From assembly GCA_000004985.1 (NCBI GenBank), contig GG738861.1: 64,000 nucleotides of DNA; one strand, 5' to 3'. A program made the translations under genes and the position numbers. The notes beneath the pieces were generated by a model. It was not told the DNA's origin and made no database searches. It saw only the letters and a program-made list of their open reading frames with translations. This stretch comes from Naegleria gruberi. Its lineage: Eukaryota. Positions 555 through 31,428 of the stretch are shown here, in pieces (within the stretch, counting starts at the first letter, position 1; each line of letters begins with the position of its first letter).

Positions 555-1861
555 TGTAACTTTCCATGCTTCGCTGGCTGGTAGTAGTAATCTTTGAGAA
601 TGCATATTTGTTAACCCTAATATTACTTGATGCTGTTAAACTAAAATCATAATCGAATTGAATCTTGAAATTACCATTTGCCTTATCAGTCCAGAAACAT
701 TTTGGCTCAGTACCAAGCAATGCCAAGTCATCACCGTGAATCAACTTGGAGCATGGAACTGTATTTGCACTGTATGAAGGTGGAGCAAATAATTTGAGGG
801 TAACTCCATCAAATAGTTCATTAATTTGAGCATAAATTTCATTGACATAGCTTGAATTGAATGATCCAAAGTATGTTGCACAGTCACCTCCAAAGTAGCC
901 ATTCATACAATCATTACAAGAAGTTCCATTCCAGTGGCCATTATCTCTATCTTGATAGCAAGAGCATTTTCCAGTAGCGTCACAATTACCATTACCATTA
1001 CAAGTTGTTTGATCATTACAATACATATCACAATTTGACCCATAGTAATTAGTCTTACACTTTTCACAAATAAATCCATCAAAATTGCCTGTACAAACAC
1101 AAGTATTGTTGCTTCCACAAGATCCACCATTCAAACAAGTTGAGTCGGTACAATATCTCTCAGTACATGTTGTACCAGTGTAGGCAGGATGACATGTATT
1201 ACAATCAGATCCATAATAATGGCCATTTATGTGATCATTAACACATGAACAAGTATTGACATCTACACATTGACCATGTCCTGAACAAACATTGGAGCTA
1301 CTCTTTGAAATAGAATTACAATCAAATTGATCACACTTTTCACCATAGTATCCTGAATCACATGCGCATTTTCCAACACCACTTGTAGAATTGATAAAAC
1401 ATTTACCATGATTTGAACAAACTCTAAAATCAGTACTTGAGTAATAATCTTCAACGCCATTATAAATACCTATACAAAGTAAGTTTTCACAAGAATCACC
1501 TGTAATCTTGACTCCATAAATTGACAAGCAGGAACACTTATCAATATCTAAACAAGTACCTCTTCCTGAACAAACTTTTGCATCCATAGAAGAAATGCCA
1601 TAACAAGTTGTGTCTTGATAATCTTGACAATCTTTACCTCCATATCTCAACTGGCATATACACGTGTCAATATCAGTACAAACACCTCTTCCTGAACAAA
1701 CACTTGGATCGAGTGAAGTTTTACCAAAACAAGTTTTAACCTGACAATCTTTATCTCCATATCCATAAGAGCATTGACAATGACCATCTTCAAAACATTT
1801 GCCCTTTCCACTGCAAACAGTTGGATCATCTTGTCTCTTTCCATTACAACTTGTGATATTA
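555..1861 (-). pseudogene. Telomere-truncated paralogue of the giant EGF-repeat gene at 2770-10271 (internal fragment, about 435 open codons, no start and no stop)
   Basis: Hand translation of the minus strand is open across the whole segment (NITSCNGKRQDDPTVCSGKGKCFEDGHCQCSYGYG ... CNDCMNGYFGGDCATYFGSFNSSYVNEIYAQINELFDGVTLKLFAPPSY ... [34 protein letters not shown]). It is collinear with the part of the full gene encoded at about 5390-6481. The upstream end is lost in gap 1862-1911 and the downstream end abuts the telomere. Confidence 0.8.
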
Positions 1862-1911
1862 NNNNNNNNNNNNNNNNNNNNNNNNNNNNNNNNNNNNNNN
1901 NNNNNNNNNNN
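1862..1911. other. Assembly gap (50 N)
   Basis: Run of n. Confidence 1.
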
Positions 1912-2512
1912 AATTAGAAAAAAATTAAACTTTAATGGTCCACTTATTATGAAAAATATGTTGGAAGGATCAAAAGAACTCTTTGTTTCTGCAAACAACA
2001 ATATTAATATTATTTCAAAATTTCAATCAATATTTATTTATTTAAATAGTGGAAATGAAAAATTAATGGATGATTTAGGAATAATTTTAAATTTAACAAA
2101 AGACAAAGTAAAACAAAAAGGTTATGTTGGATATCTTTATCATAACTATCCAATGTTATTATTTACTAAGAGAAATATTAATTATTCTTCATTTACAAAA
2201 GAAAATTTTAAAGATGTGAAATTATTTTGTGAAAATTATTTTAAATTTAAAATTGACGAATTCGATGGTATTAATGATTGGTGGAAAACTTTGACCACTC
2301 CTGCAGAATACGATGAAGACAAAGATTTAGACGAACACTGTTTTTGTGGAAACCAATTAAATCTATCCAATAGAAGGACTTGTTGTAATTGTCTTGATGG
2401 TATTTGTGAAGGTTGTGTAATTACAAGATTTAATAATTGTATTTATTGTGAGCCAGAGTGTTTGGAAAAGGATCACTTTAATACTCAAGTAGATGAAGAT
2501 GAAAATCAATAA
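1912..2512 (+). CDS. 3' part of a hypothetical protein with a Cys-rich C-terminus (5' end lost in the gap)
   Basis: Open frame from the gap edge to the stop at 2512. The C-terminus CFCGNQLNLSNRRTCCNCLDGICEGCVITRFNNCIYCEPEC looks like a zinc-binding cluster. I recognise no family. Confidence 0.45.
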
Positions 2513-2769: not shown

Positions 2770-5700
2770 TTATGATAGGTTGGCATAATAAATCACATTC
2801 GGCACTAGATTAAGCCAAAAAAAAAAACATCGGGAATATTCCTCAACAATCATAGAGTAAATTATTGCAACATATTCCGTGGTTTCCATTGTTATAAATG
2901 ATGGAATGCTGATATTAACAAGAATAGTTTTGCTTACACCTTCCATTTCTGTTGGAATGGATGAAATGACAAAGTCTGAGAGATCGGTGAAATAAATCTT
3001 GTCCACTTGGACAGATAAAGAAGAAGTTTGTAAAACAACCGGATCAGCACTCACAGTTTGTTCCTTAACAACTGAATAAGCAAGTTGTTCAGTCACATTA
3101 ACCAATTGATCGTAAATAATGAGTTGTTCAAGAGTTGATGTAATATTTTCAACAGTCTTTTGCAAATTCTCAACAATTGACAAGACAGTTTGACTTGTTT
3201 CAGTTGAAATTTGAAGATTACTCTTAAGTGCTTGGTCAATTACTTCATTCAAAATAGAAATTGACTTATCAATAACTACTGGAACAATAATTTCATCGCA
3301 CTTAATCACAGAATAAACAGCATAAACAACCATTGATAAAGTTGACTCAATTGAGGTTTCCACTCTTGTAGTTTCCACAGCACTTGTAAGTGTACTAAGA
3401 AGTTGAGTTTGAATTTTAGTAATTGTTTCAGAATCTTGATGTTGAACTTGTGGTAAACTTTGCAACAATTGACTTGTTGAAACGATTGTATTAACAGTTT
3501 GTGAAATACTTTCAATTGGATTACCATCTTGAATGATGGCTAAAATGATTTCGGTTGTTTGATTGGACACCCGTTGCCAAATCTCTTCGACTGTGTTTAC
3601 CACAACTGTTGTCACTGTAATATTTGTGAACATGATTCTTGATTCTCCAGATTGGGTATCAGTCAATTCAACGAACCATTTAACAGGTGCAGATTGTGGA
3701 GTATTTGAACAAGAGGATACCACAGCAGGGATTTTAACAGTATCCTCCTTTGAGACTGGTACTTGAATTTTGATTCCAGTGTCACTATCTACATATCCTT
3801 GGGTGATTTGGATAGTATTTCGTTCATTTTGACAATTTACACATAAAACTTTGAATTCTGTTTCCATGGAAACGCCATTAGAAGGTGTAATACTACATGG
3901 ACATTTTTGTGGTTGAGTTCCTTTTGTAATTGTTGTTGAAATTTCGGTAGAAGCAATTTCAATACCATTAACAATATTAGATTCATTTGTTTGAACATAC
4001 GAAACTTTCAATGCAATACTATTTTCAGTTCCTTCATCAAATTCCCTAGCATCAATAATAATAGCACTTTGTGTATTCTTACTCACAACTTGAACATAAC
4101 TTGAAGTTGATAACATTGTGGTTGTCAAAAAAGAATCTCTTGATTCTATTCTTATAGTTTTACTCTCAGAAACAATGGAGTTGTCAATCTTCCATTCAGT
4201 TTTAATAGAAAGTGATGAATCTGATAAATCCTGTTTTGAGTGAGAGACTTCAATGGAAAACTTCTCATCACTTTTGACAACAGATTTAAAGTCTGGAGAA
4301 ATGTCAATAATATTGAGAATCGGAGGAAAATGAACAAAATTCAAAGTAATAGAACATGAAACCTTTCTTTCTCCTTTTGTAATGCTTAGAGTAAAAGTTG
4401 GTTTCTGTAAAGTTGAAACGGAAAAGTCAGATTTGTCAACATTGAAGAGAGTTAAATGATTCTTGGAATGGAAAGACATTTTGTCAACAACACCATCTCC
4501 ACAATAACCACCAGTTTCAGAATTGACACACGACCATTGCCATAATTCAGATTCGTCTGTGTTGTTTTCTGGATCTTGATAATTGACTTGAATTGTTGAT
4601 GAATAATTACTCACTCTCTTCAATGAAAGATAAAGTGAAAGGTCAGGTTGTTCTGTGTAAATTATCACATAATCGCTCGATGATAAACTTGAATTTTGTG
4701 CAGCTGTAATTGAAATTTGGAAAACGAATTTCCACTTTCCCTTAATGAAACTGTCAATAATCAAATTATTGTAAGCGTCCCTCTTGAATGAAAGGGATGG
4801 ACCCTCAATTTGTTCCCATTCAATATTAATTGTTTCATTCTTCAAATGGTCTGGAATTGTAGTTGTCTTTTTGATATGAACCGACTTTTCAGTTGACTTT
4901 TGTCTAATAATCTTACTACCTGAAATTACCACTGAAGGAACTTGATATTCAATAATTTGGAATGTGAAAATATTAATCGAACTGAATTCATTTGTTACTG
5001 TACTTCTCACAACTAGTGTCAACTTGTAAACTCCCAGTTTTAGTAATCCCTTATCAATCTTAATGGTTGCTTGCTTGTTGGATTTTAAGAAATTTTCAAT
5101 AGTTGAATTGATAGAGTTTCCCTCAATCTTCCAAGTATACTCCAGTTCTTTCCTATCTCCAGAGAAAGAGTATGATCCACTAAATATTATATCTTCTGTT
5201 TCACTGTAAATTCTTTTTGATGACTTCACATCAGCAACTGGACTTTTGACAGTATTTGGAGGCATTAAATAAATAATAGTGTCATCTATGATGGTTCTTG
5301 TAGAAAAAGCTCCAAGTTTGTTCAATCTTCTTGTAAGTGTAGTAAATAGATTTCTGTTCACTCTAAACTGGTTTCCTATGACTGACGAAGAGTTTAGAGT
5401 AAAATCATAATCGAACTGAATCTTGAAATCACCGTTTGCCTTATTAATCCAGAAACATTTAAGTTCTGTGCCGAATAATGGTTGATCATCTATGTAAATA
5501 AGTTTTGAACATGGAACAGAGTTTGGTAAATAGGAAGGTGGAGCAAATAGCTTAAATATCACACCATCAAAGTAATCCGTAACCTGAGAATAAATTTCAT
5601 TGACATAGGTTGAGTTGAATGATTCAAAATAAGTAAAACAATCGCTTCCAAAGTAACCAGTCTGACACGAGTTGCATGAGCTACCATTCCAATAACCATT

Positions 5701-8700
5701 CTTGGAATCTGAAAAACAAATACATTGTCCATTGGATCCACATTGACCATGTCCATTACAAGTTGATTGACTATTACAATAGACATTACATTGTGATCCA
5801 TAACTATTGGATTTACAAGTTTCACAAATCAATCCAGTAAAGTTTCCAATACAATCACAGCTATTATCAGTTCCACAAGAGCCACCATTCAAGCAAGTTG
5901 AACCAGTACATGTTTTAACATTACAATTTGGACCAGCATATGCAGGATGACAAATGTTACAATCAGATCCAGAATAGAAACCATTAGCACTATCTCTAAA
6001 ACATGAGCAAGTGTTAATTCCAACACAGTTACCATGTCCTGAGCAAACATTTGAGTTATTCTTGGCAATAGAGTTGCAATTAAACATTTCACACTTATCT
6101 CCGTAATATCCCGCAACACAGGAACATCCTCTTGTTGAGCAGTTACCATGCTTTGAGCAAACTCTATAATCATTGCTTGAATAAAAATCTTCAACATTAT
6201 TGTATACTCCTTTGCAAAGTAAGTTTTCACATTCATCACCAGTAATCTTTATACTGACACCGTTTGATGAAAAACATTGACAGGTGTCAATATCAGTACA
6301 AACACCTCTTCCTGAACAAACACTTGGATCGAGTGAAGTTTTACCAAAACAAGTTTTAACCTGACAATCTTTATCTCCATATCCATAAGAGCATTGACAA
6401 TGACCATCTTCAAAACATTTGCCCTTTCCACTGCAAACAGTTGGATCATCTTGTCTCTTTCCATTACAACTTGTTATATTACATTTAGATCCAAAAAATC
6501 CAATTAAGCATTTACATAAATCATTTCCTATACATTCACCTTTTCCAGAACAAACAACTGTATCTTCAAGACTTGAAATGCCAAAGCATTCAAAAGTTTG
6601 GACTGTAACAGCCGCATTCAATGAACAGTCTGCTCCAAAGTATCCAGCTGTACAATTACACTTATTTAATGAAAGACAATCACCATGTCCACTACAGACC
6701 TGTGATGAATTATATTCAACTCCTGAACATGTGTGGAATTCACATTCCATTCCAAAATATCCGACATTACATGCACATTGATCCACTTGAGAGCAATTAC
6801 CACGGTTTAAACAAGCACCATTTAGACCTTTTCCAAAACAAATTGGTGATGAACAATCTACACCTGCCCAATTTTGATTGCACGTACAATTATTTGGAGA
6901 GTTACATTGACCATGTGAGGAACAAACCAGTGATGAGTTTGAAAGAATATTGAAACATTTTGGGAGAGCACACCAATCTCCTCCGTACATAGTGTTGCAT
7001 TGACAAATACCACCCACACAAGTGCCATTAGATGAACATACTGATGGGTCATCCTTTGAAATGCCATTACATTTGAGTAGTTGACATTGGTTTCCTTCGA
7101 AATTAGGAGAACAGGAACATGTATCAACACCAGAACATGTTCCATGTCCAGAACAAACTGATGTTTCGTTTGACAATTTTCCAAAGCAATATGGGTATTG
7201 ACATTGTGGACCTCCATAGTCTGAGTTACATTGACATGAATCCAATCCAACACATGAACCATGGGAATTGCAAATAGATGAGTCGTTTTGTAAAGTCCCA
7301 TAACATGTTGTAATTGAACAATTAGATCCATAATAATTTGAAGAACATGAACACGAATTATAATCCATACAAATACCATGCCCTGAACAAACACTGGAAT
7401 TGGTTTTTGCTACAAAGTAACAATCAAAATCTTCACAATTAGATCCATAATAATTTGAAAAACATGAACATGAATTAAATGTTGAACATGTACCATATCC
7501 TGAACAAACCTGACTTGAATTAGAAAAGACTCCATTACATGTTGTAATTGAACAATTAGATCCATAGTAATTTGAAGAACATGAACACGAATTATAATCC
7601 ATGCAAATACCATGTCCTGAACAAACACTGGAATTGGTTTTTGCTACAAAGTAACAATCAAAATATTCACAATTAGATCCATAATAATTTGAAAAACATG
7701 AACATGAATTAAATGTTGAACATGTACCATATCCTGAACAAACCTGACTTGAATTAGAAAAGATTCCATTACATGTTGTGACTGAGCAATTGGCACCATA
7801 ATAATTTGATGAGCAGCTACAGGAATTATATGCTGTACAAGTGCCTTGATTAGAACAACCAGTGGTAATAGAGTTTGAATATCCATTACATGTCCAAGAA
7901 GAACAATTTGAATTGAAATAACCAGTTGAACAGAGATTACAATAACCTCCAGCATAATTCACATCACATGCAAGGTAAATTTTTCTGAGTTCATCGATTT
8001 CTGCAATTACCATCAAATTGCTATCGCTGGCAAAAGCTAAGCCTACAAGTGTATTGAACTTGGTATTGGCCAGAGTTTCTCCATCATTAAATGTGCCAGC
8101 ACTATTGCCAGCATATGACGATATTGTGCCCGTGTTAGCATTGGCAGCAGAGGGTGTGAAAAGTTTAAGCGCACCACTGTCAGTGTAGTATACATTACCG
8201 TTGTCGTTTACAAAAAAGTCTTTGATTGATACAGAAGAGGTCTTAATTAAGTTAGTTTAAACATTTGACCCAAAACTTACAGTACAAATTGTTGTAACTG
8301 TTGAAGCTGTGAAAACTTTTAGATAAAAAGTTGAACCGATTTGTTGAAAGTAATATATCTTTCCGTCAGAAGGTCTTATATTAAAAGAAACTAAAAGAAT
8401 TAAAAGAAAATGTCCGATAACTTACATAGTGATGCAATATTTGCTGATGAAGATGCACCATCAGAAGTGGAAGCACCCCCTCCCAAAACAACTTCAATCT
8501 TGCCAGTTAAAGAGTTGATTTTGTAAATGTAACTGTCTAATGCAAAATAGACCTCACCATTGTAATATTTTACATATTTGACAGACTAGAATAAATTGGA
8601 TATTCATTTAATATTCATTCATTTCAATATTATAAAAATACTTACAATAATAGTACAAGCAGTTGGAGTGTTTCCATTAGCACATACTGGTCCAGCTGAT

Positions 8701-10271
8701 ACACCAGCTACAACCGTTACTAAACCAGTGCTTTTAGAAAGTAATTTGATATATATTCCAGTAGAATAAGAATCGACTGTTATATGAAAAATGTAACCTC
8801 TAAAATTCCATAATATAAAACTTACTCAAATAGATATCTCCAGTTGGAGTGCATGTCATAGATATAATGTTAGAATATCTAGCAGTCACATATGAACCTC
8901 CAATATTGTCAGATCCACTTGGGGCTTTGTTATTATAAGGAAGATAAAAAAATCCTGCGTAATGCTTAATTGTTGAACTTGTTAAATTGTAAAACTTAAT
9001 ACTGGTTGAGTCAGCCATATAAAATCCATCGCTGTATAAAGCAATTGCACTTGGAGCCAATTTAAGAGTTTTGGCATTTCCTTCATTCAACACGTTTCTG
9101 TAGTGCAAAAAAGAAGACAAAGTAGTTCCAACAAGTTTTCTAATGTTGTAAGAATTTTCAGCAAAGTAAAGATCACCATTTGTTGGATCAATAGTTAAGT
9201 ATTCAATGAAACCAATTATTGAAGATGGTGTAATAGTTCCATCTGCTGACTCACCTCTATATCCATTACCCAAAACTTGTTGCACAATTCCATCGGTTGT
9301 TAGTTTTCTAATGCTATAATCATATGCATTCCAATAAAGCTCATTATTGTAGCAGTCCATCTTGGTAGGATAGTTAGTTGTATCCATTAGATACGAGGTT
9401 CCAGAAATACCTGTACTTTTTGAAGCACCATTTCCAACAACTGTTGTGACATTAATAGTTCCTCCACTTTCAGTCAATTTTTGAATATAGTTTTTACTGG
9501 CAGATACATAAACATAAAGACCTCCATTACAATATTTGATTTGCATTGCAAAACCTATTAAACCAGTTTTGTAAACACTAGCTGCATTGGTTGTTCCATC
9601 AATTTTTCTAATCAGCCGATTGTCTTTTCCAATAGTCAAGGAACCTCAAACAATTAATACTTACTATAATCTGCATAATAAATGTTATCTGAAGGATCTA
9701 CAGTTATTGAGGAAGAAGAACCGGTTTGAACCAAGAGAGGATTTGAAACAGTATTGTCAGAGTTTCCAATTCCAGCACCAAAAATTACCGAAACTTGACC
9801 AGTGGATGAATCTAATTTTCTAATTCTAACTGTTCCATCAATCCAAATTAAGTCTGTTTTCCATCTTATTAAGCTTTTTGGTGTACTCATTTGAGTCGTT
9901 GTGGGATCAGTTGTGTATGTTGATCCATATGTACCACTTCCAACCTTTACATAAAATTAACCAATAAAAACTTCTAGAAAACCTACAACAGTTGAAATAA
10001 TACCTGATGAAAGAGTAATCTTTCTAATTGTTGCTGACTCGGTCGTGTACAATACTCCGGCCGTAGCATCTAAATAAATATATCCAGGAGAAACTTGATT
10101 ACTTGAGATTGGTACATTGTTCAAAGCACTAGACATTCCTCCAATTACCATGGATTTGTAGGTTCCTGTGCACGCCACATTATTATTGCTAATATTCAAA
10201 ATAATTATCAAAAAACAAAGTAATAAGGCTATGACCTCATTCTTTGATGTTGTTGAATAGAAGCACCACAT
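2770..10271 (-). CDS. Giant secreted or surface protein (about 2400 aa): signal peptide, NHL-like beta-propeller repeats, about 25 EGF-like modules, PKD/REJ-like region
   Basis: ORF 2770..8016 extends upstream through six short GT-AG introns that I placed by hand, all frame-preserving. Minus-strand exons: 10271-9987, 9944-9665, 9623 (or 9644)-8826, 8776-8646, 8585-8426, 8390-8281, 8241-2770. Introns: 9945-9986, 9624 (or 9645)-9664, 8777-8825, 8586-8645, 8391-8425, 8242-8280. The N-terminus VIALLLCFLIIILN is signal-like. Repeated blades of the type xYxAD..N.IRKL. Then CSGHGxC...CxCxxxYxGxxC modules, followed by LEYTWKIEG-type PKD/REJ-like repeats. Confidence 0.85.
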
Positions 10272-19100: not shown

Positions 19101-20900
19101 TGGACAATGAATGGTCAATCTATTCCTTCAGAATTGACAAGAAATATGAGAATGCAACTTTCTGAGTCTGACGAATTAATTTTGGACACATCTTCTTTGA
19201 CAGAAGGTGCAACTTATCAAATTTCTTTCAAAGTTACTAATGTTGATTCTTTGTTATCTGCTTCATTGAATCATTCATTTGTAATCAACAAATCACCAAA
19301 ACCATGTGACTGTCAAGTGTCACCTTTGAGTGGTATTGCAATGACAACAATATTTACTTTCAATTGTCCAAAATGTCAAAACGATCAGAATAGTAATACT
19401 TTTGAATATGGTTTTATTGATGACTTTTCAAAATCCAACTTTCCACTTTCTAAAACAGAAGAATTATATCAAAAACTTCCAATGCCAAATTCTGGAAACA
19501 AATTAGATCTTTATGTCAAGGTAATTGATTCATTGACAGGATCTAGCTCCATAACAACCAAACAAGTTACCATTTCTCTTCCGGTTGTCAAAAGTTTAGC
19601 AGGAATCAAAAAGTTAACAGCCTCATGGAACCAAATAGCAACATTGGCTCCTGTTGGTGATTATCAACGAAGTGTTTTCAATACTGCAACCATTTCTAGA
19701 ACAATGAATTTATTATTTAAGAGTATAAGTTCAAAGAGAGATTTTTGTAATGGAAATGGACAATTTAAAGATGGGAAATGTGTTTGCAATTCTGGATTTA
19801 CAACAAGTAATTGTAAATGGTCCACTGAAGATTTTGAATTTATTCAATCTTTAATTAGAGATTTATTGAATGATTTTATGGGTTCAAGTCAAATCATGAC
19901 AACCGCTTCAGAATCAACAAATAGAAATTACATTACAAATTTATTATTTGGATTGAATTCAATTTCACAAAATTCTGAATATCTTTCTAACCAAATGGTC
20001 AACTCTAGTTTAATTTTATTGAGAGATGCTTTGGTATCAGTTCAATCAAGTACCACCTTTGTTCTGTCTAGAGGAGATTTGGTCAACTTGCAAAATATTT
20101 TGAACTTACAAGAAAATTTAATGGATGGTGAAAAATTATTGGAAACTGTTGAATTATTAGGGCAAGTTTTATTGAGAAATGTTTTAATTGGTCAAATACC
20201 ATTTAAATTTGAAACTAACAGTTATTTGACAGTTTTAAACAAACATTTCAAGAATCAAATGAATGGAATGAAATTCGAAAGTGAGATGGTGAATATCACG
20301 TTACCATGGAACATTTCATCTCTCTTGAAAACTAATTCAATCAAGTCACCAATCAAGTACAGATGGAATATTCAAAAAAATACAGACACCATTGCAATTG
20401 CAAATCAACCTGGAAAGATAATATCAATCAATTCAGTTGTGAATAGTTTACAACTTGATCCTTCACCTCAATCTTATTCGAAATACTTATTCGACATTGA
20501 GATGAAACAATACGACAGTCAGGCAGCTTATGTTTGTGCTAACATTGGATCAGCATCATTGGAAACTGATTGTTCCATTTCTATCAAGAATAACCAAATA
20601 GCAACTTGTGAATGCTCTTCATTAGGATATAATCTTGTAATTCTTGAATACAAATCCATTGAAAATCATGTATCAACCTCCTCTTCATCAAATTCAAATA
20701 TAATTGTCAAAAAACCTCCAACGAGCAATCCATTAATGTGGTTATTATTGTTACTAGTCCTCATTCCACTTACTGCCCTACTAATTGCAGTAATTGTATG
20801 GTTTGTAGTAAAGAAACTGGGTAAAGATAAGAATAATACAAGAAATCCATACATGCAAACACAAGAAAGCAGTTCTACAATTGAATTGAAGCATGTTTAA
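13198..20900 (+). CDS. Giant type I membrane protein: signal peptide, beta-propeller-like N-domain, EGF array, PKD/REJ-like region, GPS-like motif, single TM, short tail
   Basis: One reading frame from an ATG in an A-rich context (13198) to the stop at 20900. It is broken only by two 50-N gaps and one 1-nt frameshift at about 17263. N-terminus: IASLLIIVLWYCFC. About 80-aa EGF double modules: WFGxxCSIHSCNGTSSQD...WTGQFCEIPKCFG. REJ-like: ILLDASESYSTDGKQISYKWEI. GPS-like: TCECSSLGYNLVIL. TM: LMWLLLLLVLIPLTALLIAVIVWFVV. Confidence 0.85.
16986..17035. other. Assembly gap (50 N)
   Basis: Run of n. Confidence 1.
17036..18626 (+). repeat. Gap-bounded contig made only of EGF modules, duplicating earlier parts of the same gene
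   Basis: About 17990-18626 appears identical to about 15232-15868 (offset 2758). 17036-17270 is nearly identical to 17756-17990 (720-nt super-repeat). Confidence 0.8.
18627..18676. other. Assembly gap (50 N)
   Basis: Run of n. Confidence 1.
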
Positions 20901-21244: not shown

Positions 21245-21584
21245 ATGTTTCCACAACAAGCTCCACGGATTGTGGTAGAGATAAAACTTGGTAACACAGT
21301 TGCTCAATTGTTTCCAGATGGTAGCTTGAGTAATGGTTCAACCAGTATTACTGATTTCAGCGCAGTTGCACTAAACAAGCAAAACAAGCAAGTATGGGGG
21401 TTTGAAAATGACAAAGTTAAAATATTGTGCAATCAAAACCACGTTTGTAGTTATGGTCAAGTCAACCACTTGATAACAGGCAAGGGATTAAATAGGCTTC
21501 GTTCTCTTTACAATCTCGTAATAACAAAATATCTCCAACAACAGCCAAACATCACCGTTCCCAGAACCAATGCTGGTGACACCA
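21245..21584 (+). CDS. 5' part of a hypothetical protein (runs into the gap)
   Basis: ATG preceded by AAAAA, then 113 open codons up to the 1021-N gap. No recognisable domain. Confidence 0.4.
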
Positions 21585-22605
21585 NNNNNNNNNNNNNNNN
21601 NNNNNNNNNNNNNNNNNNNNNNNNNNNNNNNNNNNNNNNNNNNNNNNNNNNNNNNNNNNNNNNNNNNNNNNNNNNNNNNNNNNNNNNNNNNNNNNNNNNN
21701 NNNNNNNNNNNNNNNNNNNNNNNNNNNNNNNNNNNNNNNNNNNNNNNNNNNNNNNNNNNNNNNNNNNNNNNNNNNNNNNNNNNNNNNNNNNNNNNNNNNN
21801 NNNNNNNNNNNNNNNNNNNNNNNNNNNNNNNNNNNNNNNNNNNNNNNNNNNNNNNNNNNNNNNNNNNNNNNNNNNNNNNNNNNNNNNNNNNNNNNNNNNN
21901 NNNNNNNNNNNNNNNNNNNNNNNNNNNNNNNNNNNNNNNNNNNNNNNNNNNNNNNNNNNNNNNNNNNNNNNNNNNNNNNNNNNNNNNNNNNNNNNNNNNN
22001 NNNNNNNNNNNNNNNNNNNNNNNNNNNNNNNNNNNNNNNNNNNNNNNNNNNNNNNNNNNNNNNNNNNNNNNNNNNNNNNNNNNNNNNNNNNNNNNNNNNN
22101 NNNNNNNNNNNNNNNNNNNNNNNNNNNNNNNNNNNNNNNNNNNNNNNNNNNNNNNNNNNNNNNNNNNNNNNNNNNNNNNNNNNNNNNNNNNNNNNNNNNN
22201 NNNNNNNNNNNNNNNNNNNNNNNNNNNNNNNNNNNNNNNNNNNNNNNNNNNNNNNNNNNNNNNNNNNNNNNNNNNNNNNNNNNNNNNNNNNNNNNNNNNN
22301 NNNNNNNNNNNNNNNNNNNNNNNNNNNNNNNNNNNNNNNNNNNNNNNNNNNNNNNNNNNNNNNNNNNNNNNNNNNNNNNNNNNNNNNNNNNNNNNNNNNN
22401 NNNNNNNNNNNNNNNNNNNNNNNNNNNNNNNNNNNNNNNNNNNNNNNNNNNNNNNNNNNNNNNNNNNNNNNNNNNNNNNNNNNNNNNNNNNNNNNNNNNN
22501 NNNNNNNNNNNNNNNNNNNNNNNNNNNNNNNNNNNNNNNNNNNNNNNNNNNNNNNNNNNNNNNNNNNNNNNNNNNNNNNNNNNNNNNNNNNNNNNNNNNN
22601 NNNNN
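21585..22605. other. Assembly gap (1021 N)
   Basis: Run of n. The three long X-filled ORFs in the track are artefacts of this gap. Confidence 1.
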
Positions 22606-22721
22606 ATAAGAGATTGGAGTAAGAGGTATCCGAAGGTTTGCAATACCAAACTCATTTAATGGTTTTGTGAAATAATAAAATTATTATTATTCGGGTCTCT
22701 TCAAAAAAAAATCCTTTACAA

Positions 22722-23571: not shown

Positions 23572-26500
23572 TTAAAGCATTAACAAGCACATCATGATTG
23601 AAACCAGTAAGGAAACACTGAACGAAATCATTGCAACGTTGTTGACACGAGCTGAAACCTTTGGAATAAAAGGAGCAGGAGAAGATTTTGGAGAGACAAC
23701 AGGTGTTGGAATAGCCTTTGGTTGAGCAGTTAACAAATATTTGCCAGTTGAAGAGACAGAAACAGTTACAGAGTTACTGGTCTTGGAAATGACTGAACAA
23801 CTGGTTGAGAGTTGATAATTATTGGTTGCTGAATTGTAAACTTGACAATAGACATCATATGCAGAAACCGATCTTGCCATTGTTATATCCTTTGAGGTAG
23901 AGAAGGTCAATTCGGCAATAGAACTTGAACTAGAAACGGTAACTGCAGATTTTTCAGCAAGAGAAATATCAAGAGCATCTGAAACAGAGTTGGTGACTCC
24001 GCCACTTGATGATTTTACCTTAAGAATGAGAGTCTTGTAATTAGAAACAAGATCAGAAAATTTAGCTGCCATTTTGAACTTATTTCCATTAATAATATCT
24101 TGTAAATTATTCAAAGTTGCAATATTGACCTTTCTTGAATAAGTAGTTGTTTGATTAGCAACAATATAGTTGGCTGGAAGGTCAGCAACTGTATCCTTAA
24201 CGAGAGCGCTTGATAAACTGTCATACGTAGCTTGAATATTAGTAATATCAGAATTGGAGAATGATCTCTTTGAAACACCCTTTGCTACAATAAATCTATA
24301 GAATTTATCAGCAGCTTCCTTCGCCTTTGTCAACAGTTCAGTAGCCAATTTAACTTCATCACTCGAAGCAGCATTAGCAGCAGTTTGAGCAAGATTGGTG
24401 ATCATCTTGGAAATAATGTCATCGACAATATATTCCAAACTTGAAGTACCAGAAGAAATCATTGACAATTTAGAGGAGGCAGAGTTAGTATTTTCAGAAG
24501 CAACAGATTGAGCCTTTGCTTGATTGTCCAAATAGGAAAGAATCATATTGGAAGTCAATTTTGCAATTTCAGCTTTTTGCTCAGCAGTTGCACCAGCAAT
24601 AGAGCTAACAACCTTAATGACAGCAGATACGGAAGCAAGGGTTGGTGTTTCCTTCGCAGTTGATTCAATAGAATTCACTGCTTGAGTGGTAGTTGGTTGA
24701 GTAACAGCTACAGAAATTTCAGATTCTGTAAATGCCAACTTGGAATCATAAACTGCAACTTTAAGACGGAGTTGAGAACTGCTTGAAGAAGGTAATTTGA
24801 TTCTTGTAGATCTAGTTTCAGTTCTCTCCGTCAATGCAGTCCAAGAGGATGAAATGTCATCATAATAGAAGAATTGATAGGTAAGTGGCAACTGAGAGTC
24901 TGTCCAACCATTTCCACATTTCAATTCGAATAAGGTACTGAGAGCAACACCAGATTGTGGACTAGCTTCGAAAATACCTCTTGTTGGAGGAGAGTTTACA
25001 TTAACACTTGTTGTAGCAACACCATTCTTTGAACCATCAGTAATATTCAAACTAATAGAGTATGAAGCGCCAGCACTCAACAATGATTTTGGAATCTTGA
25101 TAAAGCTGGAAGTTTGGGTGAGTGATGATAAATCAAACTTATCAGAGAACCAGAAGAAGGTTGGAGATGATAAAACTTCAAGAGAGGAATAGGTCAAATA
25201 CAAATCAGATGATGGGCTAACAAGTGAAAGATCGCTATTAGAAGTAATTGAAGCTCTAATCAAAGTATTCTTTGGAACGGACTTAGCTTTAACAATTAAA
25301 TTAGTTGATGCAGATCTTGATCCCTTAACAACAGTAGCAGTATACTTGTATTCACCAGCAGAGAGGAATGTGGAGAAGGTTCTTTGATTTAAATTTGGAG
25401 AAGAACATGACTTAATGTTGACAATATCAAAACATGTGATAGTGACAGTTTCTGAATCAGACGTACTACTTGGATCAACAACTGCAACAGAGAAATCCAA
25501 TGAATCTTGAGTTGATTGAGTAATGTCAGAAATGTTGAATTGAATAGTCAAATCTTGAGCTACAGCAGTTACCTTGAAAGGAAGAAATGCATCGTTAGCA
25601 TTGTCAGAAACAGCCCTAAGGATAAAGTAATAATCGCCTTCCTTATTAATATCAGTGAAGGATTTACCAATAGCGAATAAATTATTACTAGATTTTGGAG
25701 TTACAACTGATTTAGAGGCTGAAGAAGTATCAACAGAATAGGTATAATCAGTTTGATAATTTCCAGAATAACACTTTGGGAATTTGATGACTGGTGTCAA
25801 TACAATAGTAGATCCAATCATGTAAGTCACAGAAATACCTTCACTGAGTGATAGAGTTGGAACTGGATTGCTAACAACATTCACGGTAACACTTGATGTG
25901 GCAACTTTAGAGAATGCAGTTGTGACAGTAACTTGAATAATGAATGATCCACCAGAAATTGCACTCAATGAAGAGGAGCTGAAATCGACAATAGCGCTTG
26001 AAGTTTTAACACCACTCAAGTAAGTATTCAAAGCATTCATTTCACCAACAGTTGGACCGTTAGTGACATACCAAGAGAATAACAATGCACGACGATCTGA
26101 TGAAACTGATCCAGAAGCATCCAAATATAGAGTATCACACTTGGAAACAGAGCTCTTATCAGAAACTAGATTAACACTTGGAGGAAGTGCAACAAATGTA
26201 CCAGAAGAAACTGTAACAGACAATGTTTCAGCGCTTCCTGGGAATTTGAATAATCTCAAAGAATTACCTGGTACAATATTTGCACTGGTTCCTAATATAA
26301 TTTCCAAAGAGGAAGTTGCAGAATTCAAAATACATTTAGCATCAGAACCTATCAATGATAAATCAGAGCTAGAAATGACATCTGAACAATCTGATTGTTT
26401 CAATAAACTTGATTTGACTTCACCAATAATTGACCCACCAGTTGAAGTGAAAACAAAACTATTAGAATTAATTTGGAAATCACAATTGCTTCCAAACCAT

Positions 26501-28425
26501 CCATTCAAACACTTGGCACAATTACTGGAAGCATCAAAGTTTCCATAACAAGTACATGAGCCATCATTATTACAGTAACCTTTAGAGGAACAATTACTAA
26601 CACTATTACAAGTAATTGAGCAACTGGAACCAACAAATCCACTAGCACATTGATCACAATATGTACCAACAAAGTTACCTTCACAAACACATTTCAAATT
26701 AACACAATTACCTCTGGAATTACAAGTTTGAACTCTATCACAAACTGGAGTGTTACAATTAGCTCCTGAATAATCAAGTGAGCAGCTTGAACAAGATTTA
26801 CCATCATTGTAATTAATTGGACATGAACACTTATTAGGAGCTGAACAAATACCACGAGATGAACAAACACTAGAGCTTGACTTGTCAATTCCATAACAGC
26901 TAAACGTTTGACAAGCTGTACCATTATAACCTTCAGAACAATGACAGATATTTGGAGCAATACATGAACCCTTTCCAGAACAAACTCTATTATCGGTAGC
27001 ACTAATTTCAAAACAAACGGGAATATCACAATTATCACCAACAAAACCATCAACACATTTAGAACAAAACTTGGATGAATCAAAGTTACCATTACAAGAA
27101 CAAACATCCTTTGAAACACATGAACCTCTATACGAACATCCTCCTTGAGATTCACTCAATCCATTACAAGTAGTGTATTGACATCTATCACCAGTGTAAC
27201 CACTATTACATTCACAAGTATTTGGGGCAGTACAATTACCTTGTTTGTTACAACCAGATGTACCTGTTTGATTGTTACAAAGTGGAATAGTACAATCACT
27301 ACCAGTATATCCACTACCACAAACCATAACACTACACTGAGAACCAGTAAAACCTGGATAACAATCACATTGATCTTTTCCTATACATTTACCCTTACTT
27401 GAACAAACAGATGAAGAATTACTCAAAGTATTAAAACATCTTGTTTCAGAACAAGATGGACCTTCCCAACCACTCTTACATGAACATTGATTTAGTGATG
27501 AACAGTTACCATTAGATGAACAAACACTTGATTGATTGGCCAAAATACCAAAACATGAAGTAATTTCACACAACTTGCCATAGAATCCACTATTACATTG
27601 GCAAGTATTTGGACCAACACATTGACCATTTCTTGAACAAACAGTTTGATTGGAGTTGGTTAAACCAGAACAAGAATATGTTTGACATTCAGAACCAATG
27701 TAACCACTCTTACATAAACAGCTATCAACAGAAACACAAGTTCCTGATCCAGAACAAACAGATGAATCAGTAAAATTCTTTCCAAAACATTGATGAATCT
27801 GGCATTCTAATCCACTGTATCCATTATTACATTGACACATATCTTGAGAAATACAAGTACCTTGATTACAAGCTTCAGCTCTTGGCTTAGTGAAACATGT
27901 GATATTCTTTGAGACACAAGTATTTGGAGCAATACATGTATCGTATTGTCCACAGGATTGAGTTTCGTTAGCCAAATAATTATTGCAAATTGGCATGTTA
28001 CAAACACCAGCAGGTCCATAACCTGATTTACATTCGCACTTGTCAAAATCACTGCAGATACCTTTCGAAAAACAAACTTGAGGTGATTGAGAATCGATGC
28101 CATTACAAGTTGTAAAAGAACAATTGTCTCCGTGGTAATTTGTTGAGCAGATACAATCATCGAGACTAGAACATGAACCATGGGATGAACAAACCTTGGA
28201 ATCGTTAGCTGGAGTACCATAACAGGAAGGAATTTCACAGAATTTTCCAATAAATCCATTAACACATATACAACCGCCATCCAGACATGTTCCATTACCA
28301 TTACAGATATTTTCCAAATGAGTAGATCCACATTTAACTGGTTCTGGTTGTGGGGTTTCCGTTGTTGTTTCATTACAGAATGTTCCATTGATATTTGAGT
28401 TACAAATACAGACACCGTTCAACAA
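23572..28425 (-). CDS. C-terminal 1617 codons of a giant EGF / PKD-REJ-like surface protein with a GPI-signal-like hydrophobic end
   Basis: Long ORF. EGF modules are followed by YLDASGSVSSDRRALLFSWYV (PKD/REJ-like), a long Ser/Thr-rich region and the C-terminus VAMISFSVSLLVSIMMCLLML. The first residues (NGVCICNSNINGTFCNETT) continue the repeat of the upstream ORF, so the M at 28425 is not a real start. Confidence 0.8.
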   Translation of the reverse strand: MLNGVCICNSNINGTFCNETTTETPQPEPVKCGSTHLENICNGNGTCLDGGCICVNGFIGKFCEIPSCYGTPANDSKVCSSHGSCSSLDDCICSTNYHGDNCSFTTCNGIDSQSPQVCFSKGICSDFDKCECKSGYGPAGVCNMPICNNYLANETQSCGQYDTCIAPNTCVSKNITCFTKPRAEACNQGTCISQDMCQCNNGYSGLECQIHQCFGKNFTDSSVCSGSGTCVSVDSCLCKSGYIGSECQTYSCSGLTNSNQTVCSRNGQCVGPNTCQCNSGFYGKLCEITSCFGILANQSSVCSSNGNCSSLNQCSCKSGWEGPSCSETRCFNTLSNSSSVCSSKGKCIGKDQCDCYPGFTGSQCSVMVCGSGYTGSDCTIPLCNNQTGTSGCNKQGNCTAPNTCECNSGYTGDRCQYTTCNGLSESQGGCSYRGSCVSKDVCSCNGNFDSSKFCSKCVDGFVGDNCDIPVCFEISATDNRVCSGKGSCIAPNICHCSEGYNGTACQTFSCYGIDKSSSSVCSSRGICSAPNKCSCPINYNDGKSCSSCSLDYSGANCNTPVCDRVQTCNSRGNCVNLKCVCEGNFVGTYCDQCASGFVGSSCSITCNSVSNCSSKGYCNNDGSCTCYGNFDASSNCAKCLNGWFGSNCDFQINSNSFVFTSTGGSIIGEVKSSLLKQSDCSDVISSSDLSLIGSDAKCILNSATSSLEIILGTSANIVPGNSLRLFKFPGSAETLSVTVSSGTFVALPPSVNLVSDKSSVSKCDTLYLDASGSVSSDRRALLFSWYVTNGPTVGEMNALNTYLSGVKTSSAIVDFSSSSLSAISGGSFIIQVTVTTAFSKVATSSVTVNVVSNPVPTLSLSEGISVTYMIGSTIVLTPVIKFPKCYSGNYQTDYTYSVDTSSASKSVVTPKSSNNLFAIGKSFTDINKEGDYYFILRAVSDNANDAFLPFKVTAVAQDLTIQFNISDITQSTQDSLDFSVAVVDPSSTSDSETVTITCFDIVNIKSCSSPNLNQRTFSTFLSAGEYKYTATVVKGSRSASTNLIVKAKSVPKNTLIRASITSNSDLSLVSPSSDLYLTYSSLEVLSSPTFFWFSDKFDLSSLTQTSSFIKIPKSLLSAGASYSISLNITDGSKNGVATTSVNVNSPPTRGIFEASPQSGVALSTLFELKCGNGWTDSQLPLTYQFFYYDDISSSWTALTERTETRSTRIKLPSSSSSQLRLKVAVYDSKLAFTESEISVAVTQPTTTQAVNSIESTAKETPTLASVSAVIKVVSSIAGATAEQKAEIAKLTSNMILSYLDNQAKAQSVASENTNSASSKLSMISSGTSSLEYIVDDIISKMITNLAQTAANAASSDEVKLATELLTKAKEAADKFYRFIVAKGVSKRSFSNSDITNIQATYDSLSSALVKDTVADLPANYIVANQTTTYSRKVNIATLNNLQDIINGNKFKMAAKFSDLVSNYKTLILKVKSSSGGVTNSVSDALDISLAEKSAVTVSSSSSIAELTFSTSKDITMARSVSAYDVYCQVYNSATNNYQLSTSCSVISKTSNSVTVSVSSTGKYLLTAQPKAIPTPVVSPKSSPAPFIPKVSARVNNVAMISFSVSLLVSIMMCLLML

Positions 28426-28509
28426 GTTCCATTATAATAGCAATTATTTTCTTCAACGGTTGATCCACAGTTTAATTGGTTCAGTGGAACAGAGTATTCT
28501 GGTGTGCTT

Positions 28510-31428
28510 TCATTGCAAATGTTCCGTTAACGTTGTATTGCAAATACAAATACCATTTACACATGTTCCGTTACCATAACAGGCATTTTCTTCCAATGTT
28601 TCACCACATTTAATTGGTTCAGGATGTGGGATAACTGGTTCTGTATTTGTTTCATTGCAATATGTACCATTAATGTTTGAATTACAAATACAGACACCAT
28701 TAATGCAAGTACCATTTCCATAACAAATATTTTCATATTCAGTGATACCACATTTAACAACTGGTTCTGGTTGAGGTGTTGGAGTTTCAGAAGTCTCATT
28801 ACAGAAGGTTCCATTAACGTTTGTATTACAAATACAAATACCATTTACGCATGTTCCATTTCCATAACAATTATTTTCCTCAATGGTTGTTCCACATTTA
28901 ATTGGTTCAGGTTGTGGAATTATTGGTTCAACAATGGTTTCATTACAGAAAGTACCGTTTGAGCCACCTAAACATGAACAAATACCATTCAAACAAGTTC
29001 CATTTCCATAACAATTATTTTCTTCAACGGTTGATCCACATTTAATTGGTTCAGGTTGGGGAATTGGAGTTTCTGGAGTTGTTTCATTACAGAATGTTCC
29101 GTTTACATTAGAGTTGCAAATACAAATACCATTTACACATGTTCCGTTACCATAACAGGCATTTTCTTCCAATGTTTCACCACATTTAATTGGTTCAGGA
29201 TGTGGAGTAACAGGTGCTGATGTTGTTTCATTACAATATGTACCATTAATGTTTGAATTACAAATACAGACACCATTCAAACAAGTTCCATTTCCATAAC
29301 AATTATTCTCATCTTCAGTGAAACCACATTTAACAACAGGTTCTGGTTGAGGCTCATGACTTGTTTCATTACAGAAGGTTCCATTAACGTTGGTAATACA
29401 AACACAAATACCATTCATGCAAGTTCCATTTCCATAACAATTATTTTCTTCAATGGTTGATCCACATTTAACTGGTTCAGTTGGAATTTGAGGTTCTGAA
29501 GCAGTTGTTTCATTACAGTATGTTCCGTTCATACCCTCAACACAGATGCACAATCCATCAAGACATGTGCCGTTACCATAACAATTGCTTTCTTCCTGAG
29601 TTGTACCACAAATAATTGGTTCAGGTTGTGGAGAATCAGAATTTGTTTCATTGCAATATGTACCATTTACGTTTGAATTACAAGCACAGACACCATTGAT
29701 GCAAGTTCCATTTCCGTAACAGTTGTTTTCTTCCATGGTTGATCCACATTTAACTGGTTCAGGATGAGGAATTGGAGTTTCAGGAGTTGTTTCATTACAG
29801 AATGTTCCGTTTACCTTTGAATCACAAACACAAATACCATTTAAACAGGTTCCATTACCGTAACAGTTATTTTCTTCCAATGTTTCACCACATTTGACAG
29901 GTTCTGGTTCTGGAGTAACTGGTTCTGTAGTTGTTTCATTGCAGAATGTGCCATTAACATTCTCAAAACATACACACAAGCCATCAACACAAGTACCATT
30001 TCCAAAACAGTTATTTTCTTCTTCGGTCGAACCACATTTAACTACTGGTTCTGGTTGAGTTGGATCTTGAGTTGTTTCGTTACAGAATGTACCATTCACG
30101 CCAATAAAACAAATACAAACACCCTCAATGCATGTACCGTTACCATAACAAGTATTTTCTTCTATAGTTTCACCACATTTGACAGGCTCAGGAACAACTG
30201 GATCTGGAGATGTTTCGTTACAGAATGTACCATTAATATTCTCGTTGCAAACACACAAACCATCAACACATGTTCCATTTCCGTAGCAGCTATTTTCTTC
30301 TGTTGTTTCGCCACATTTAATTGGTTGAGTTGGAACTTGAGGTTCAGTAGGATTAGTTTCGTTACAGAATGTACCATTAACATCTTGATTACAAACACAG
30401 AATCCATTTACACAACTTCCATTGTTGTAGCAATTATTCTCTTCCAAAGTTTCACCACATTGTAAAGGTTGTGGAATTTCAGGTTCTATATTTGATTCAT
30501 TACAGAATGTACCATTTGCGCCTTCTTTGCAAATACAGGAGCCACCAATACAAGTGCCATTACCATAGCAGTTATTTTCATCTTCTGTAAAACCACATTT
30601 AACTGGCTCTGGTTGAGTTGGGATTTCAGGAGCTGTTTCGTTACAGAAAGTACCATTAGCGCCTTCAATACAAACACACAGTCCATCAAGACATGTTCCA
30701 TTACCATAACAATTACTTTCTTCCTGAGTTGTACCACAAATAATTGGTTCAGGTTGGCTGGGAACTGGACTGGTTTCGTTACAGAATGTACCATTACTAC
30801 CTTCATTGCAAGTACAAAAACCATTCTCACACGTACCATTGCCATAACAATTATTCTCTTCTTCTGTAGTACCACATTTAACCAATTCTGGTTGTGGTTC
30901 CATGCTGAAGGTTTCATTACAAAATGTACCATTAACATTCTCGTTACAAATACACAAACCATCGACACATGTACCATTACCATAACAAATATTTTCATCT
31001 TCTGTGAAACCACAGTTAACTGGTTGAGTAGGGACTTGTGGTTCTTGAGTTGTTTCATTACAGAATGTACCATTCACACCTTCAATACATATGCAGAAAC
31101 CATCGACACATGTACCATTACCATAACAATTTTGTTCTTCCAATGTTTCACCACAAGTGGTAATGGTATCATTACAGAATAAACCAATGAAACCTTCTGA
31201 ACATTGACAAACACCACGAGTACAATTACCATTAGAATAGCAAGATTGTTCATCTAATGTTTCACCACAGAAAACATCCTGACATTCCATTGTACCCAAG
31301 AGGTCACATGTCTGGGACAATAAACATTCAGTGTCTGAACTGCATGTTGCTGATACGAGACCAACAGCAGCAATTACAGAAAGTACAATTAAAAGTATTG
31401 TTGTTTTGAACAGCAAGTTACTTGCCAT
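28510..31428 (-). CDS. N-terminal 972 codons of the same gene: signal peptide plus about 20 tandem 41-48-aa EGF-like modules with Pro/Thr/Glu linkers
   Basis: MASNLLFKTTILLIVLSVIAAVGLVSA is a signal peptide. The reiterated unit is KCGxTxEENNCYGNGTCxxGxCxCxxxVNGTFCNETT + PxPxPEPV. The frame ends inside a degenerate unit at about 28510. Confidence 0.8.
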   Translation of the reverse strand: MASNLLFKTTILLIVLSVIAAVGLVSATCSSDTECLLSQTCDLLGTMECQDVFCGETLDEQSCYSNGNCTRGVCQCSEGFIGLFCNDTITTCGETLEEQNCYGNGTCVDGFCICIEGVNGTFCNETTQEPQVPTQPVNCGFTEDENICYGNGTCVDGLCICNENVNGTFCNETFSMEPQPELVKCGTTEEENNCYGNGTCENGFCTCNEGSNGTFCNETSPVPSQPEPIICGTTQEESNCYGNGTCLDGLCVCIEGANGTFCNETAPEIPTQPEPVKCGFTEDENNCYGNGTCIGGSCICKEGANGTFCNESNIEPEIPQPLQCGETLEENNCYNNGSCVNGFCVCNQDVNGTFCNETNPTEPQVPTQPIKCGETTEENSCYGNGTCVDGLCVCNENINGTFCNETSPDPVVPEPVKCGETIEENTCYGNGTCIEGVCICFIGVNGTFCNETTQDPTQPEPVVKCGSTEEENNCFGNGTCVDGLCVCFENVNGTFCNETTTEPVTPEPEPVKCGETLEENNCYGNGTCLNGICVCDSKVNGTFCNETTPETPIPHPEPVKCGSTMEENNCYGNGTCINGVCACNSNVNGTYCNETNSDSPQPEPIICGTTQEESNCYGNGTCLDGLCICVEGMNGTYCNETTASEPQIPTEPVKCGSTIEENNCYGNGTCMNGICVCITNVNGTFCNETSHEPQPEPVVKCGFTEDENNCYGNGTCLNGVCICNSNINGTYCNETTSAPVTPHPEPIKCGETLEENACYGNGTCVNGICICNSNVNGTFCNETTPETPIPQPEPIKCGSTVEENNCYGNGTCLNGICSCLGGSNGTFCNETIVEPIIPQPEPIKCGTTIEENNCYGNGTCVNGICICNTNVNGTFCNETSETPTPQPEPVVKCGITEYENICYGNGTCINGVCICNSNINGTYCNETNTEPVIPHPEPIKCGETLEENACYGNGTCVNGICICNTTLTEHLQ

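Follow-up and report, generated by a model that had tools for sequence, protein, structure and literature searches.

The sea-urchin protein suREJ1 carries EGF modules and a single C-terminal transmembrane (TM) segment. Polycystin-1 (PC1) has PKD domains and a REJ module of ~1000 amino acids (aa), with a GPS/GAIN unit at its base and 11 TM segments (PMC4810088). In the GPS of latrophilin, the Thr after the Leu acts as nucleophile and the His before that Leu as general base, and GAIN domains are older than the animals, with examples in Dictyostelium and at least eight in Tetrahymena (Arac et al. 2012; PMC3321182). It is mainly from animal adhesion G protein-coupled receptors (GPCRs) and from polycystins that GAIN and REJ are familiar, and thinking about them there has been dominated by self-cleavage and tethered agonists. 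What does the same cassette look like when it has no partner of seven (7TM) or 11 TM segments to work with? Here, we take up a place where that question can be asked: the first 31 kb of a 64,000-nucleotide stretch (the window) of contig GG738861.1 from the heterolobosean amoeba Naegleria gruberi (GenBank assembly GCA_000004985.1), where four related genes, which we call fragment A and genes B, C and D, lie beside a telomere.

We think it fairly probable that these four belong to a large family of REJ-GAIN proteins in Naegleria, giant, cysteine-rich and heavily N-glycosylatable, that would stand on the cell surface, tethered by one TM helix or by a glycosylphosphatidylinositol (GPI) anchor, and would serve in adhesion or recognition. 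The first-pass annotation of this DNA, made from the letters and their reading frames, had seen in it a polycystin-1/sea-urchin REJ-type ectodomain (EGF, then PKD/REJ, then GPS) in a protist. That observation is real and its domain interpretation is right, with the link to GPS running through intermediates and structure; its count of three complete genes is overstated. What is new is an architectural variant of known modules, and what was already known is gene C and part of gene D as GenBank models, that is, as sequences labelled “predicted protein” or “basal body protein.” A literature search for Naegleria linked with REJ, GAIN or polycystin found no paper. Coordinates are collected in Table 1.

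The REJ-GAIN ectodomain and its anchors

Genes B, C and D each start with a hydrophobic, signal-peptide-like N-terminus, and all four genes, fragment A included, contain arrays of EGF units that Pfam assigns to EGF_TEN, EGF_Teneurin and EGF_2 at E values of 1e-26 to 1e-66. The REJ family (PF02010) is matched in B, C and D far above its curated cut-off of 25 bits; the paralogues reach 120-160 bits, and the precomputed Pfam matches of P0155, a close relative of gene C, include REJ as well. The shared plan that had been proposed (signal peptide, variable N-domain, EGF array, REJ) is borne out in B, C and D. The PKD domain is matched narrowly in gene C by the K319L-like_PKD model and, below threshold, by PKD_4 (17.4 bits); in B and D, Pfam gives no PKD match at E<=0.01, and each of the two holds the motif LDxSxSxxxD...YxW once. 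The motif, LDASxSxSxD...YxW, is the core of a PKD-like unit and occurs in one copy per gene, so that the repeats of the type LDASxSxSxDxxxLxYxW that had been described are not repeats at all.

The N-domains are as variable as had been said. That of gene B has NHL-like blades and passes the Pfam TEN_NHL model narrowly (27.3 bits vs a cut-off of 27.1). That of gene C is all-beta, has no match in a Pfam search and is weakly linked to an SBBP beta-propeller-repeat protein (E 4e-8 at 24% coverage); a second N. gruberi protein shares 60% identity with it, and an AlphaFold model of it, built on four sequences, came out at a predicted local distance difference test (pLDDT) score of 36.8, which is unusable. 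Gene D begins instead with EGF plus Pro/Thr-linker repeats that are rich in NxT sites, where N-glycans might be carried.

Does the region that follows REJ form a GAIN domain? A profile was made from what follows the EGF array in B, C and D, and an exhaustive HMMER search with it returned 978 representatives at E<=1e-3, of which 41 reached E<=1e-30; many of these relatives have CxCxxL[STG] 20-40 residues upstream of their first TM segment. Two of them from metagenomes (P0038 and P0056) run PKD, REJ, one EGF, ~280 residues, a Pfam GPS match at 40 bits and then about nine TM segments, and up to the membrane this is the order of gene C, in which PKD/REJ is followed by a single EGF, GAIN, the TM helix and a tail of 29 residues. 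In an alignment of 30 GPS-region sequences (A3; gene C first, gene D second), two cysteines are invariant, and the canonical CxCxHLTxF is aligned with CECSSLG in gene C and with VSVSSTG in gene D. Compared with PDB sequences, the A3 profile finds ADGRL3 (E 9.7e-14), ADGRF1, ADGRD1, ADGRG1, CELSR1, latrophilin-1 (4DLQ) and BAI3 (4DLO); the profile of the wider family (A2) had no matches among the same sequences. Aligned to a canonical GPS set by hhalign, the gene C set scores 98.4% (E 6.4e-15, 256 columns) and the gene D set 97.7% (E 1.6e-12, 275 columns). A GAIN domain is defined by a fold of ~320 residues, with a helical subdomain A and a beta-sandwich subdomain B that ends in the GPS strands, and the predicted fold is of this kind. 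On these profile comparisons and this model, we read gene C as carrying a GAIN domain and gene D a GAIN-like one.

The GPS itself is degenerate. Gene C keeps all four GPS cysteines (two upstream plus the CxC pair) and has S-L-G (CECSSL-G) for H-L-T, and gene D reads VSVSST-G, with S-T-G instead of H-L-T; of the four cysteines, only the first two are left in gene D and in the remaining paralogues of the GPI type. Within N. gruberi, the site can be followed through a graded series: CRCSKLTNVF, CSCSTLGNVF, CECSSLGYNL and VSVSSTGKYL. With Gly for the Thr nucleophile and Ser for the His in both C and D, self-cleavage is not expected, and autoproteolysis at the GPS-like sites of these two proteins is unlikely. 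In other words, since the catalytic residues are gone, this GAIN would most likely be the uncleaved structural or mechanical base of a stalk and not an autoprotease with a tethered agonist.

Where the ectodomain of C or D ends, there is a TM helix or a putative GPI anchor. In gene C, the GPS-like sequence (TCECSSLGYNLVIL) sits ~40 residues upstream of the only TM helix, its strand ending 29 residues ahead of it, much as the first-pass annotation had placed it. Gene D has its GPS-equivalent strand ~30 residues ahead of a hydrophobic end of 22 residues, which is preceded by ...PKVSARVN and has no cytoplasmic residues after it; the GPI-signal-like tail noticed earlier is, thus, there, and similar tails are found in paralogues P0006, P0007, P0008, P0014, P0015, P0037 and P0039. 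In the family proteins of the window, PLAT, PKD_channel and 7TM gave no Pfam matches. We also observed that the TM-type proteins P0009, P0012, P0020, P0028, P0031, P0060, P0063 and P0130 share with gene C (at 20874-20897) a C-terminus of the form [IV]EL..V-COOH, often [ST]xV-COOH, which looks like a conserved sorting or PDZ-type ligand motif.

One can imagine how such a protein would be put together. A variable distal domain (a propeller-like domain of NHL or other type, or an EGF/mucin stalk) would be the presumed ligand-binding head, held out on a rigid stalk of teneurin/tenascin-type EGF units, followed by the PKD-like and REJ modules and, next to the membrane, GAIN; the tether would be one TM helix with a short [IV]EL..V tail or a GPI anchor. 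The cassette amounts to the ectodomain of polycystin-1 or sea-urchin REJ minus the PLAT/11-TM part and minus any 7TM part, and with it the cell would adhere to substrate, prey or other cells, or recognize them.

How close is this to what has been described? With suREJ1 and PKD1/PKDREJ, the Naegleria proteins share a large ectodomain, a presumably adhesive N-terminal part, a probable PKD-type domain, REJ and a membrane-proximal GPS/GAIN, and gene C has the EGF modules and single C-terminal TM of suREJ1 as well. They differ in belonging to a heterolobosean amoeba and not to an animal, in having no Pfam matches to PLAT/LH2, to an 11-TM or channel-like domain, to C-type lectin or to LRR, and in a GPS without His and Thr, some members being apparently GPI-anchored, with the CxC pair lost. 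Polycystin-1 is marked by PLAT after the first TM and by an 11-TM half, and neither is found in C, with its one TM and short tail, or in D, with its GPI-like tail. Adhesion GPCRs (BAI3 4DLO, latrophilin 4DLQ, ADGRL3, CELSR1, ADGRF1 and ADGRG6) likewise have GAIN directly before the membrane anchor, but the Naegleria proteins have a single TM or a GPI tail and not 7TM, have no HormR domain and have S-L-G or S-T-G in place of H-L-T. The GAIN/REJ proteins described from other protists were reported with a conserved GPS (PMC3321182), whereas Naegleria has a degenerate GPS, an expanded family and single-pass or GPI anchors, and its family extends GAIN to Discoba. The pairing of REJ with GAIN is also pushed far beyond the animals and their close relatives.

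Teneurins are type II membrane proteins. The best EGF models of our proteins are Teneurin EGF and Teneurin-like EGF, and the head of gene B narrowly passes Teneurin NHL, but an N-terminal signal peptide together with a C-terminal anchor gives the Naegleria proteins the opposite orientation, and YD-shell, Tox-GHH and fibronectin/fibrinogen had no Pfam matches in the window proteins. The resemblance is one of shared module types only.

The four genes at the chromosome end

The candidate telomere repeat of N. gruberi is TTTGGG (PMC3622300), and the window opens with a long run of it. Provided that the first 1.9-kb contig was scaffolded correctly, the window begins at a chromosome end, and the cluster affords a first view of the subtelomere in Naegleria, with one gene that appears to have been broken and capped by telomere repeats. 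The four related genes lie within 555-31428 in the orientations -, -, + and -; four genes within 31 kb of the telomere, in mixed orientations, had been claimed and are found. The N. gruberi genome has about 41 Mb; if it holds some 50 genes of the family, ~0.04 would be expected so close to the telomere, and the four that are there far exceed this. A subtelomeric position is established for this one cluster. Of the 20 representatives that were looked up, 15 are from N. gruberi, one is from N. lovaniensis, three come from metagenomes or read assemblies, and the last is a PKD1-like protein of a hemichordate; the N. gruberi paralogues, which follow the plan of an unknown head, an EGF_TEN array and REJ, lie on at least 14 different scaffolds. 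In the post-EGF (REJ-GAIN) region, genes B, C and D share just 20-26% identity, and each has closer relatives elsewhere: EFC41042.1 and EFC45190.1 for gene B (45-48% identity), EFC47371.1 for gene D (38%) and P0155, on another N. gruberi scaffold, for gene C (98%). The cluster is, therefore, not a recent tandem array.

Fragment A has an open frame of 435 codons, which on its 5' side begins in the first assembly gap and at its other end passes directly into the telomere repeat. The frame covers the last part of an EGF array and ~90 residues beyond it. The simplest reading is that it is a family member that was broken within the gene and healed by telomere addition. The ~205 bp next to the gap (1655-1861) match gene B at 6275-6481 with 98-99% identity; for the remainder of A, the identity to gene B is ~71-73%. 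Conversion tracts had been proposed for this subtelomere; this is the one clear tract, and it adjoins an assembly gap.

Gene B is apparently unannotated in GenBank. Its parts follow in the order of signal peptide, NHL-like N-domain, EGF array, PKD-like motif and REJ, and GAIN subdomain A with part of B. Six GT-AG introns of 35-60 nucleotides (nt), starting GTAAGT or GTAGGT, all fall within the NHL-like N-domain; the remaining 5.5 kb of the gene is one exon, and genes C and D have no visible introns. The alignment to its closest paralogue, EFC41042.1, halts at residue 1638 of 1843, before the GPS strand and the TM segment, so that gene B ends ~100 aa short of the GPS position and has no GPS strand, TM or clear GPI tail. 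A search for a 3' exon that would supply gene B with a TM or GPI tail found nothing convincing.

In gene C, the REJ region is interrupted by an EGF-array contig (17036-18626) that has a frameshift near 17260. Part of this contig (17747-18626) is 96% identical to 14989-15868 of gene C itself, the GenBank model of the gene omits the stretch, and at the same place P0155, the 98% twin, has just 39 residues between “...YQVDS” and “QMTARP...”. The contig is probably misplaced, and gene C would, therefore, truly have ~2040 aa and not 2566. Introns were considered as the cause of the frame changes and rejected, the 50-N gaps and the misplaced contig being what lies there. As for where the contig comes from, its protein is 94% identical to the EGF array of P0155, and it may belong to the P0155 copy or to the other haplotype.

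The frame of gene D is broken in a single repeat unit (28427-28545), which has three 1-nt deletions, one 1-nt insertion and a 4-nt deletion in the linker. An intron was considered here too and rejected: there is no acceptor AG, and alignment to the neighboring units shows 1-nt indels. GenBank annotates gene D only at 27996-23575 (1474 codons; EFC45847.1) under the name “basal body protein,” a label for which our literature search found no source and which fits none of its EGF, REJ, GAIN and GPI-like tail; the name is called into question. A copy of the last 1.8 kb of gene D, 99.4% identical, is found in a 2779-nt environmental contig (ENA ERZ929261, L002), where 974-2779 corresponds to window 25308-23503 and is joined to 973 nt of unrelated sequence with another open reading frame (ORF). 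Either a related strain has a truncated copy at an ectopic site, or the contig was assembled as a chimera.

Three gene models are corrected in this way: C by a misplaced contig, D by a missing 5' half and B by being apparently unannotated. With C shortened once its gaps and the contig are allowed for, D broken in frame and B stopping early, the “three complete genes of 2400-2600 codons” of the first-pass annotation are not what the window holds. We picture a partly decayed cluster, in which A would be broken and telomere-healed, B would lack its 3' end, D would be broken in frame (unless by sequencing error) and C would have a 98% twin.

What the cluster might be

Some of what we found weighs against a family of surface-anchored REJ-GAIN adhesion or recognition proteins. 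Of the profile searches suggested at the outset, those for REJ succeed in B, C and D and that for PKD narrowly in C, but the Pfam GPS and GAIN models have no direct match: GPS (PF01825) and GAIN find nothing at E<=1 in the last 433 aa of C or the last 442 aa of D, and a hidden Markov model from canonical GPS sequences alone has no significant match to C or D as single sequences. The GAIN call was reached through intermediates, profile-profile comparison and an AlphaFold model whose alignment included canonical GAIN relatives, and its subdomain B is modelled with moderate confidence only (pLDDT 50-80). The GPI signal of gene D was assigned by eye, the “basal body protein” label would point to another location if it is based on data, and the defects in A, B and D mean that most of the cluster is perhaps nonfunctional.

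That last point can be taken further. Could A, B and D simply be decaying pseudogenes, with gene C or its 98% twin as the sole working gene? A is a 1.3-kb piece capped by a telomere, B ends before the GPS and TM of its closest paralogue with no downstream exon found, and D is broken in frame by four or more indels within a single repeat unit, GenBank covering only its 3' 1474 codons; all of this speaks for decay. Yet B has a frame of 2411 codons across six correctly spliced introns, A has its 435 codons, and D has open stretches of 972 and 1617 codons, and at 33% GC it is very improbable that frames this long would stay open, except where the damage happened recently or comes from sequencing error. 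The assembly is a gapped draft of poor quality near scaffold ends and in repeats, and gene B without an anchor could be a secreted form. We take a mostly dead cluster seriously but doubt it. Another account is that of a variant surface family like var, VSG or VSP, diversifying and switching in the subtelomere by ectopic recombination and conversion, possibly with exclusive expression. Like those systems and the yeast FLO and MAL genes, the window has large surface-protein genes beside a telomere, truncated copies and near-identical copies elsewhere; the excess of members over expectation, the 98-99% tract of A and B inside DNA that is otherwise ~71% identical, the copy of gene C on another scaffold, the copy of the gene D 3' end on unrelated DNA in an environmental contig and the variable N-domains of B, C and D all fit. 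But N. gruberi is free-living and under no host immune pressure, B, C and D are anciently diverged lineages and not a recently diversifying array, the spacers have no repeats, the A/B tract adjoins a gap, the twin of gene C could be an allele, and the paralogues lie on at least 14 scaffolds. Turnover at chromosome ends may have touched these genes; a switching family of this kind is unlikely.

Two further accounts start from the animal relatives. In signaling receptors of the polycystin-1/adhesion-GPCR type, GAIN would cleave itself and expose a tethered agonist or gate an associated channel. Proteins of the PKD1 family have the REJ-GAIN cassette as their hallmark (PMC4810088), and more distant relatives in our profile search do have the canonical CxCxHLTxF and 7 to 11 predicted TM segments, but C and D have Gly for the Thr/Ser nucleophile and no His (for the roles, see PMC3321182), C has one TM and its 29 residues, D has a GPI-like tail, and PLAT, PKD_channel and 7TM are missing from their Pfam matches; we consider signaling of this sort very improbable. 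Nor do we give much credit to the idea that these are membrane proteins of the flagella or basal bodies, made for the switch from amoeba to flagellate. The idea comes from the GenBank name of EFC45847.1 and from the ciliary and sperm location of polycystins and suREJ, PC-1 and PC-2 being enriched on primary cilia (PMC7728438) and suREJ1 being on the surface of the sperm head (PMC9265791). Where the name comes from was not to be found in the literature search, such a protein is missing from a review of the basal bodies of Naegleria, and the sequence of gene D, of which the label covers a truncated model only, reads as that of an extracellular GPI-type glycoprotein and not of a basal-body component; a flagellar or basal-body role is, to our minds, highly unlikely.

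We return, then, to a family of tethered REJ-GAIN proteins for adhesion or recognition, and to what it would mean. Dozens of proteins of one Discoba amoeba with REJ and GAIN, with a TM helix or a GPI anchor only and with a GPS that by nature would not be cleaved, offer a view of the cassette without its 7TM or 11-TM partner. A more adventurous reading, to which we give only a small chance, is that the single-pass or GPI form is the ancestral one, present in the common ancestor of Discoba and animals, and that the 7TM and 11-TM parts joined later; in Naegleria, it would have multiplied to dozens of receptors whose interchangeable heads recognize prey, kin or mating partners, and chromosome ends would be where these genes turn over, as copies break, are healed by telomere addition or are exchanged ectopically. 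If this were true, the uncleavable GAIN would reveal a primary role that is not proteolytic at all but mechanical or structural.

Coordinates and neighboring sequence

Table 1. Features of the cluster, in positions of the window
Feature	Position	Strand	Basis or remark
Telomere, (CCCAAA)92	1-554		Repeat scan; TTTGGG on the other strand
Fragment A, truncated family member	555-1861	-	Pfam EGF_2 and EGF_TEN matches
Assembly gap, 50 N	1862-1911		Joins telomeric contig to remaining scaffold
N runs of the gapped draft scaffold	1862-1911, 16986-17035, 18627-18676, 21585-22605		
Gene B, 2411 codons	2770-10271	-	ATG at 10271, stop 2770-2772
Gene B introns	9986-9945, 9664-9624, 8825-8777, 8645-8586, 8425-8391, 8280-8242	-	
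Gene B PKD-like motif IIFSGSYSFSGDRKELEYTW	5131-5190	-	Motif search
Gene B Pfam REJ match	3511-4731	-	70.9 bits
Gene C (EFC45733.1 / XP_002678477.1, NAEGRDRAFT_48114)	13198-20900	+	1854-aa model
Gene C signal peptide	13198-13290	+	
Gene C beta-rich N-domain	to ~14685	+	
Gene C EGF array	14686-16191	+	
Gene C K319L-like PKD domain, holding ILLDASESYSTDGKQISYKW (16582-16641)	16576-16779	+	Pfam PF22352, 28.6 bits vs cut-off 27
Two 50-N gaps (16986-17035, 18627-18676) around 1591-bp EGF-array contig (17036-18626)	16986-18676	+	
Gene C Pfam REJ match	18975-19841	+	81.6 bits
Gene C single EGF after REJ	19743-19814	+	
Gene C GAIN domain (predicted)	19818-20723	+	Five helices (subdomain A), then beta-sandwich (subdomain B)
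Gene C degenerate GPS motif TCECSSLGYNLVIL	20604-20645	+	Alignment A3
Gene C single TM helix	20733-20810	+	Hydropathy 3.24 over 19 aa
Gene C cytoplasmic tail, 29 aa	20811-20897	+	Ends STIELKHV
Gene D	23572-31428	-	ATG at 31428, signal peptide
Gene D EGF + Pro/Thr-linker repeats, about twenty of 47 aa	31338-28364	-	
Gene D frame disruptions	28427-28545	-	Alignment to neighboring repeat units
Gene D EGF array	28425-26506	-	
Gene D PKD-like motif	26071-26130	-	
Gene D REJ, best stretch	24628-25368	-	134.1 bits
Gene D GAIN-like domain	23710-24585	-	
Gene D GPS-equivalent strand VTVSVSSTGKYLLTA	23725-23769	-	CxC pair and H-L-T triad lost
Gene D GPI-signal-like hydrophobic tail NVAMISFSVSLLVSIMMCLLML	23575-23640	-	Hydropathy 2.44

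A repeat scan of the window found tandem repeats in the coding EGF arrays and nowhere else; the spacers, which had been called repeat-rich, are not. The 1021-N gap at 21585-22605 lies inside the convergent spacer of genes C and D, and the “ORFs” listed at 21245-22655 are artefacts of this N run. A Cys-rich ORF (CFCGNQLNLSNRRTCCNCLDGICEGCVITRFNNCIYCEPEC) at 1913-2512 (+) begins within the first assembly gap and converges on gene B; a Pfam search with it gave no match.

The other 32 kb of the window has ordinary genes: three actin-family ORFs, a beta-CASP nuclease, a CitMHS transporter and an RWP-RK protein, whose ORF (RWP-RK domain at 52 bits) is at 61541-63049 (-), the far end of the window. 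Two intronless actin genes, at 32747-33982 and 40475-41710, form an inverted repeat of 1236 nt that is 98% complementary with its arms 6.5 kb apart, and a third, divergent actin-family ORF is at 48814-50001 (-). The intronless actin gene at 32846-33979 (-) is identical to N. gruberi EFC36529.1, EFC37355.1, EFC38601.1 and EFC45736.1; with four GenBank accessions for one actin protein, this is, therefore, a multicopy gene.

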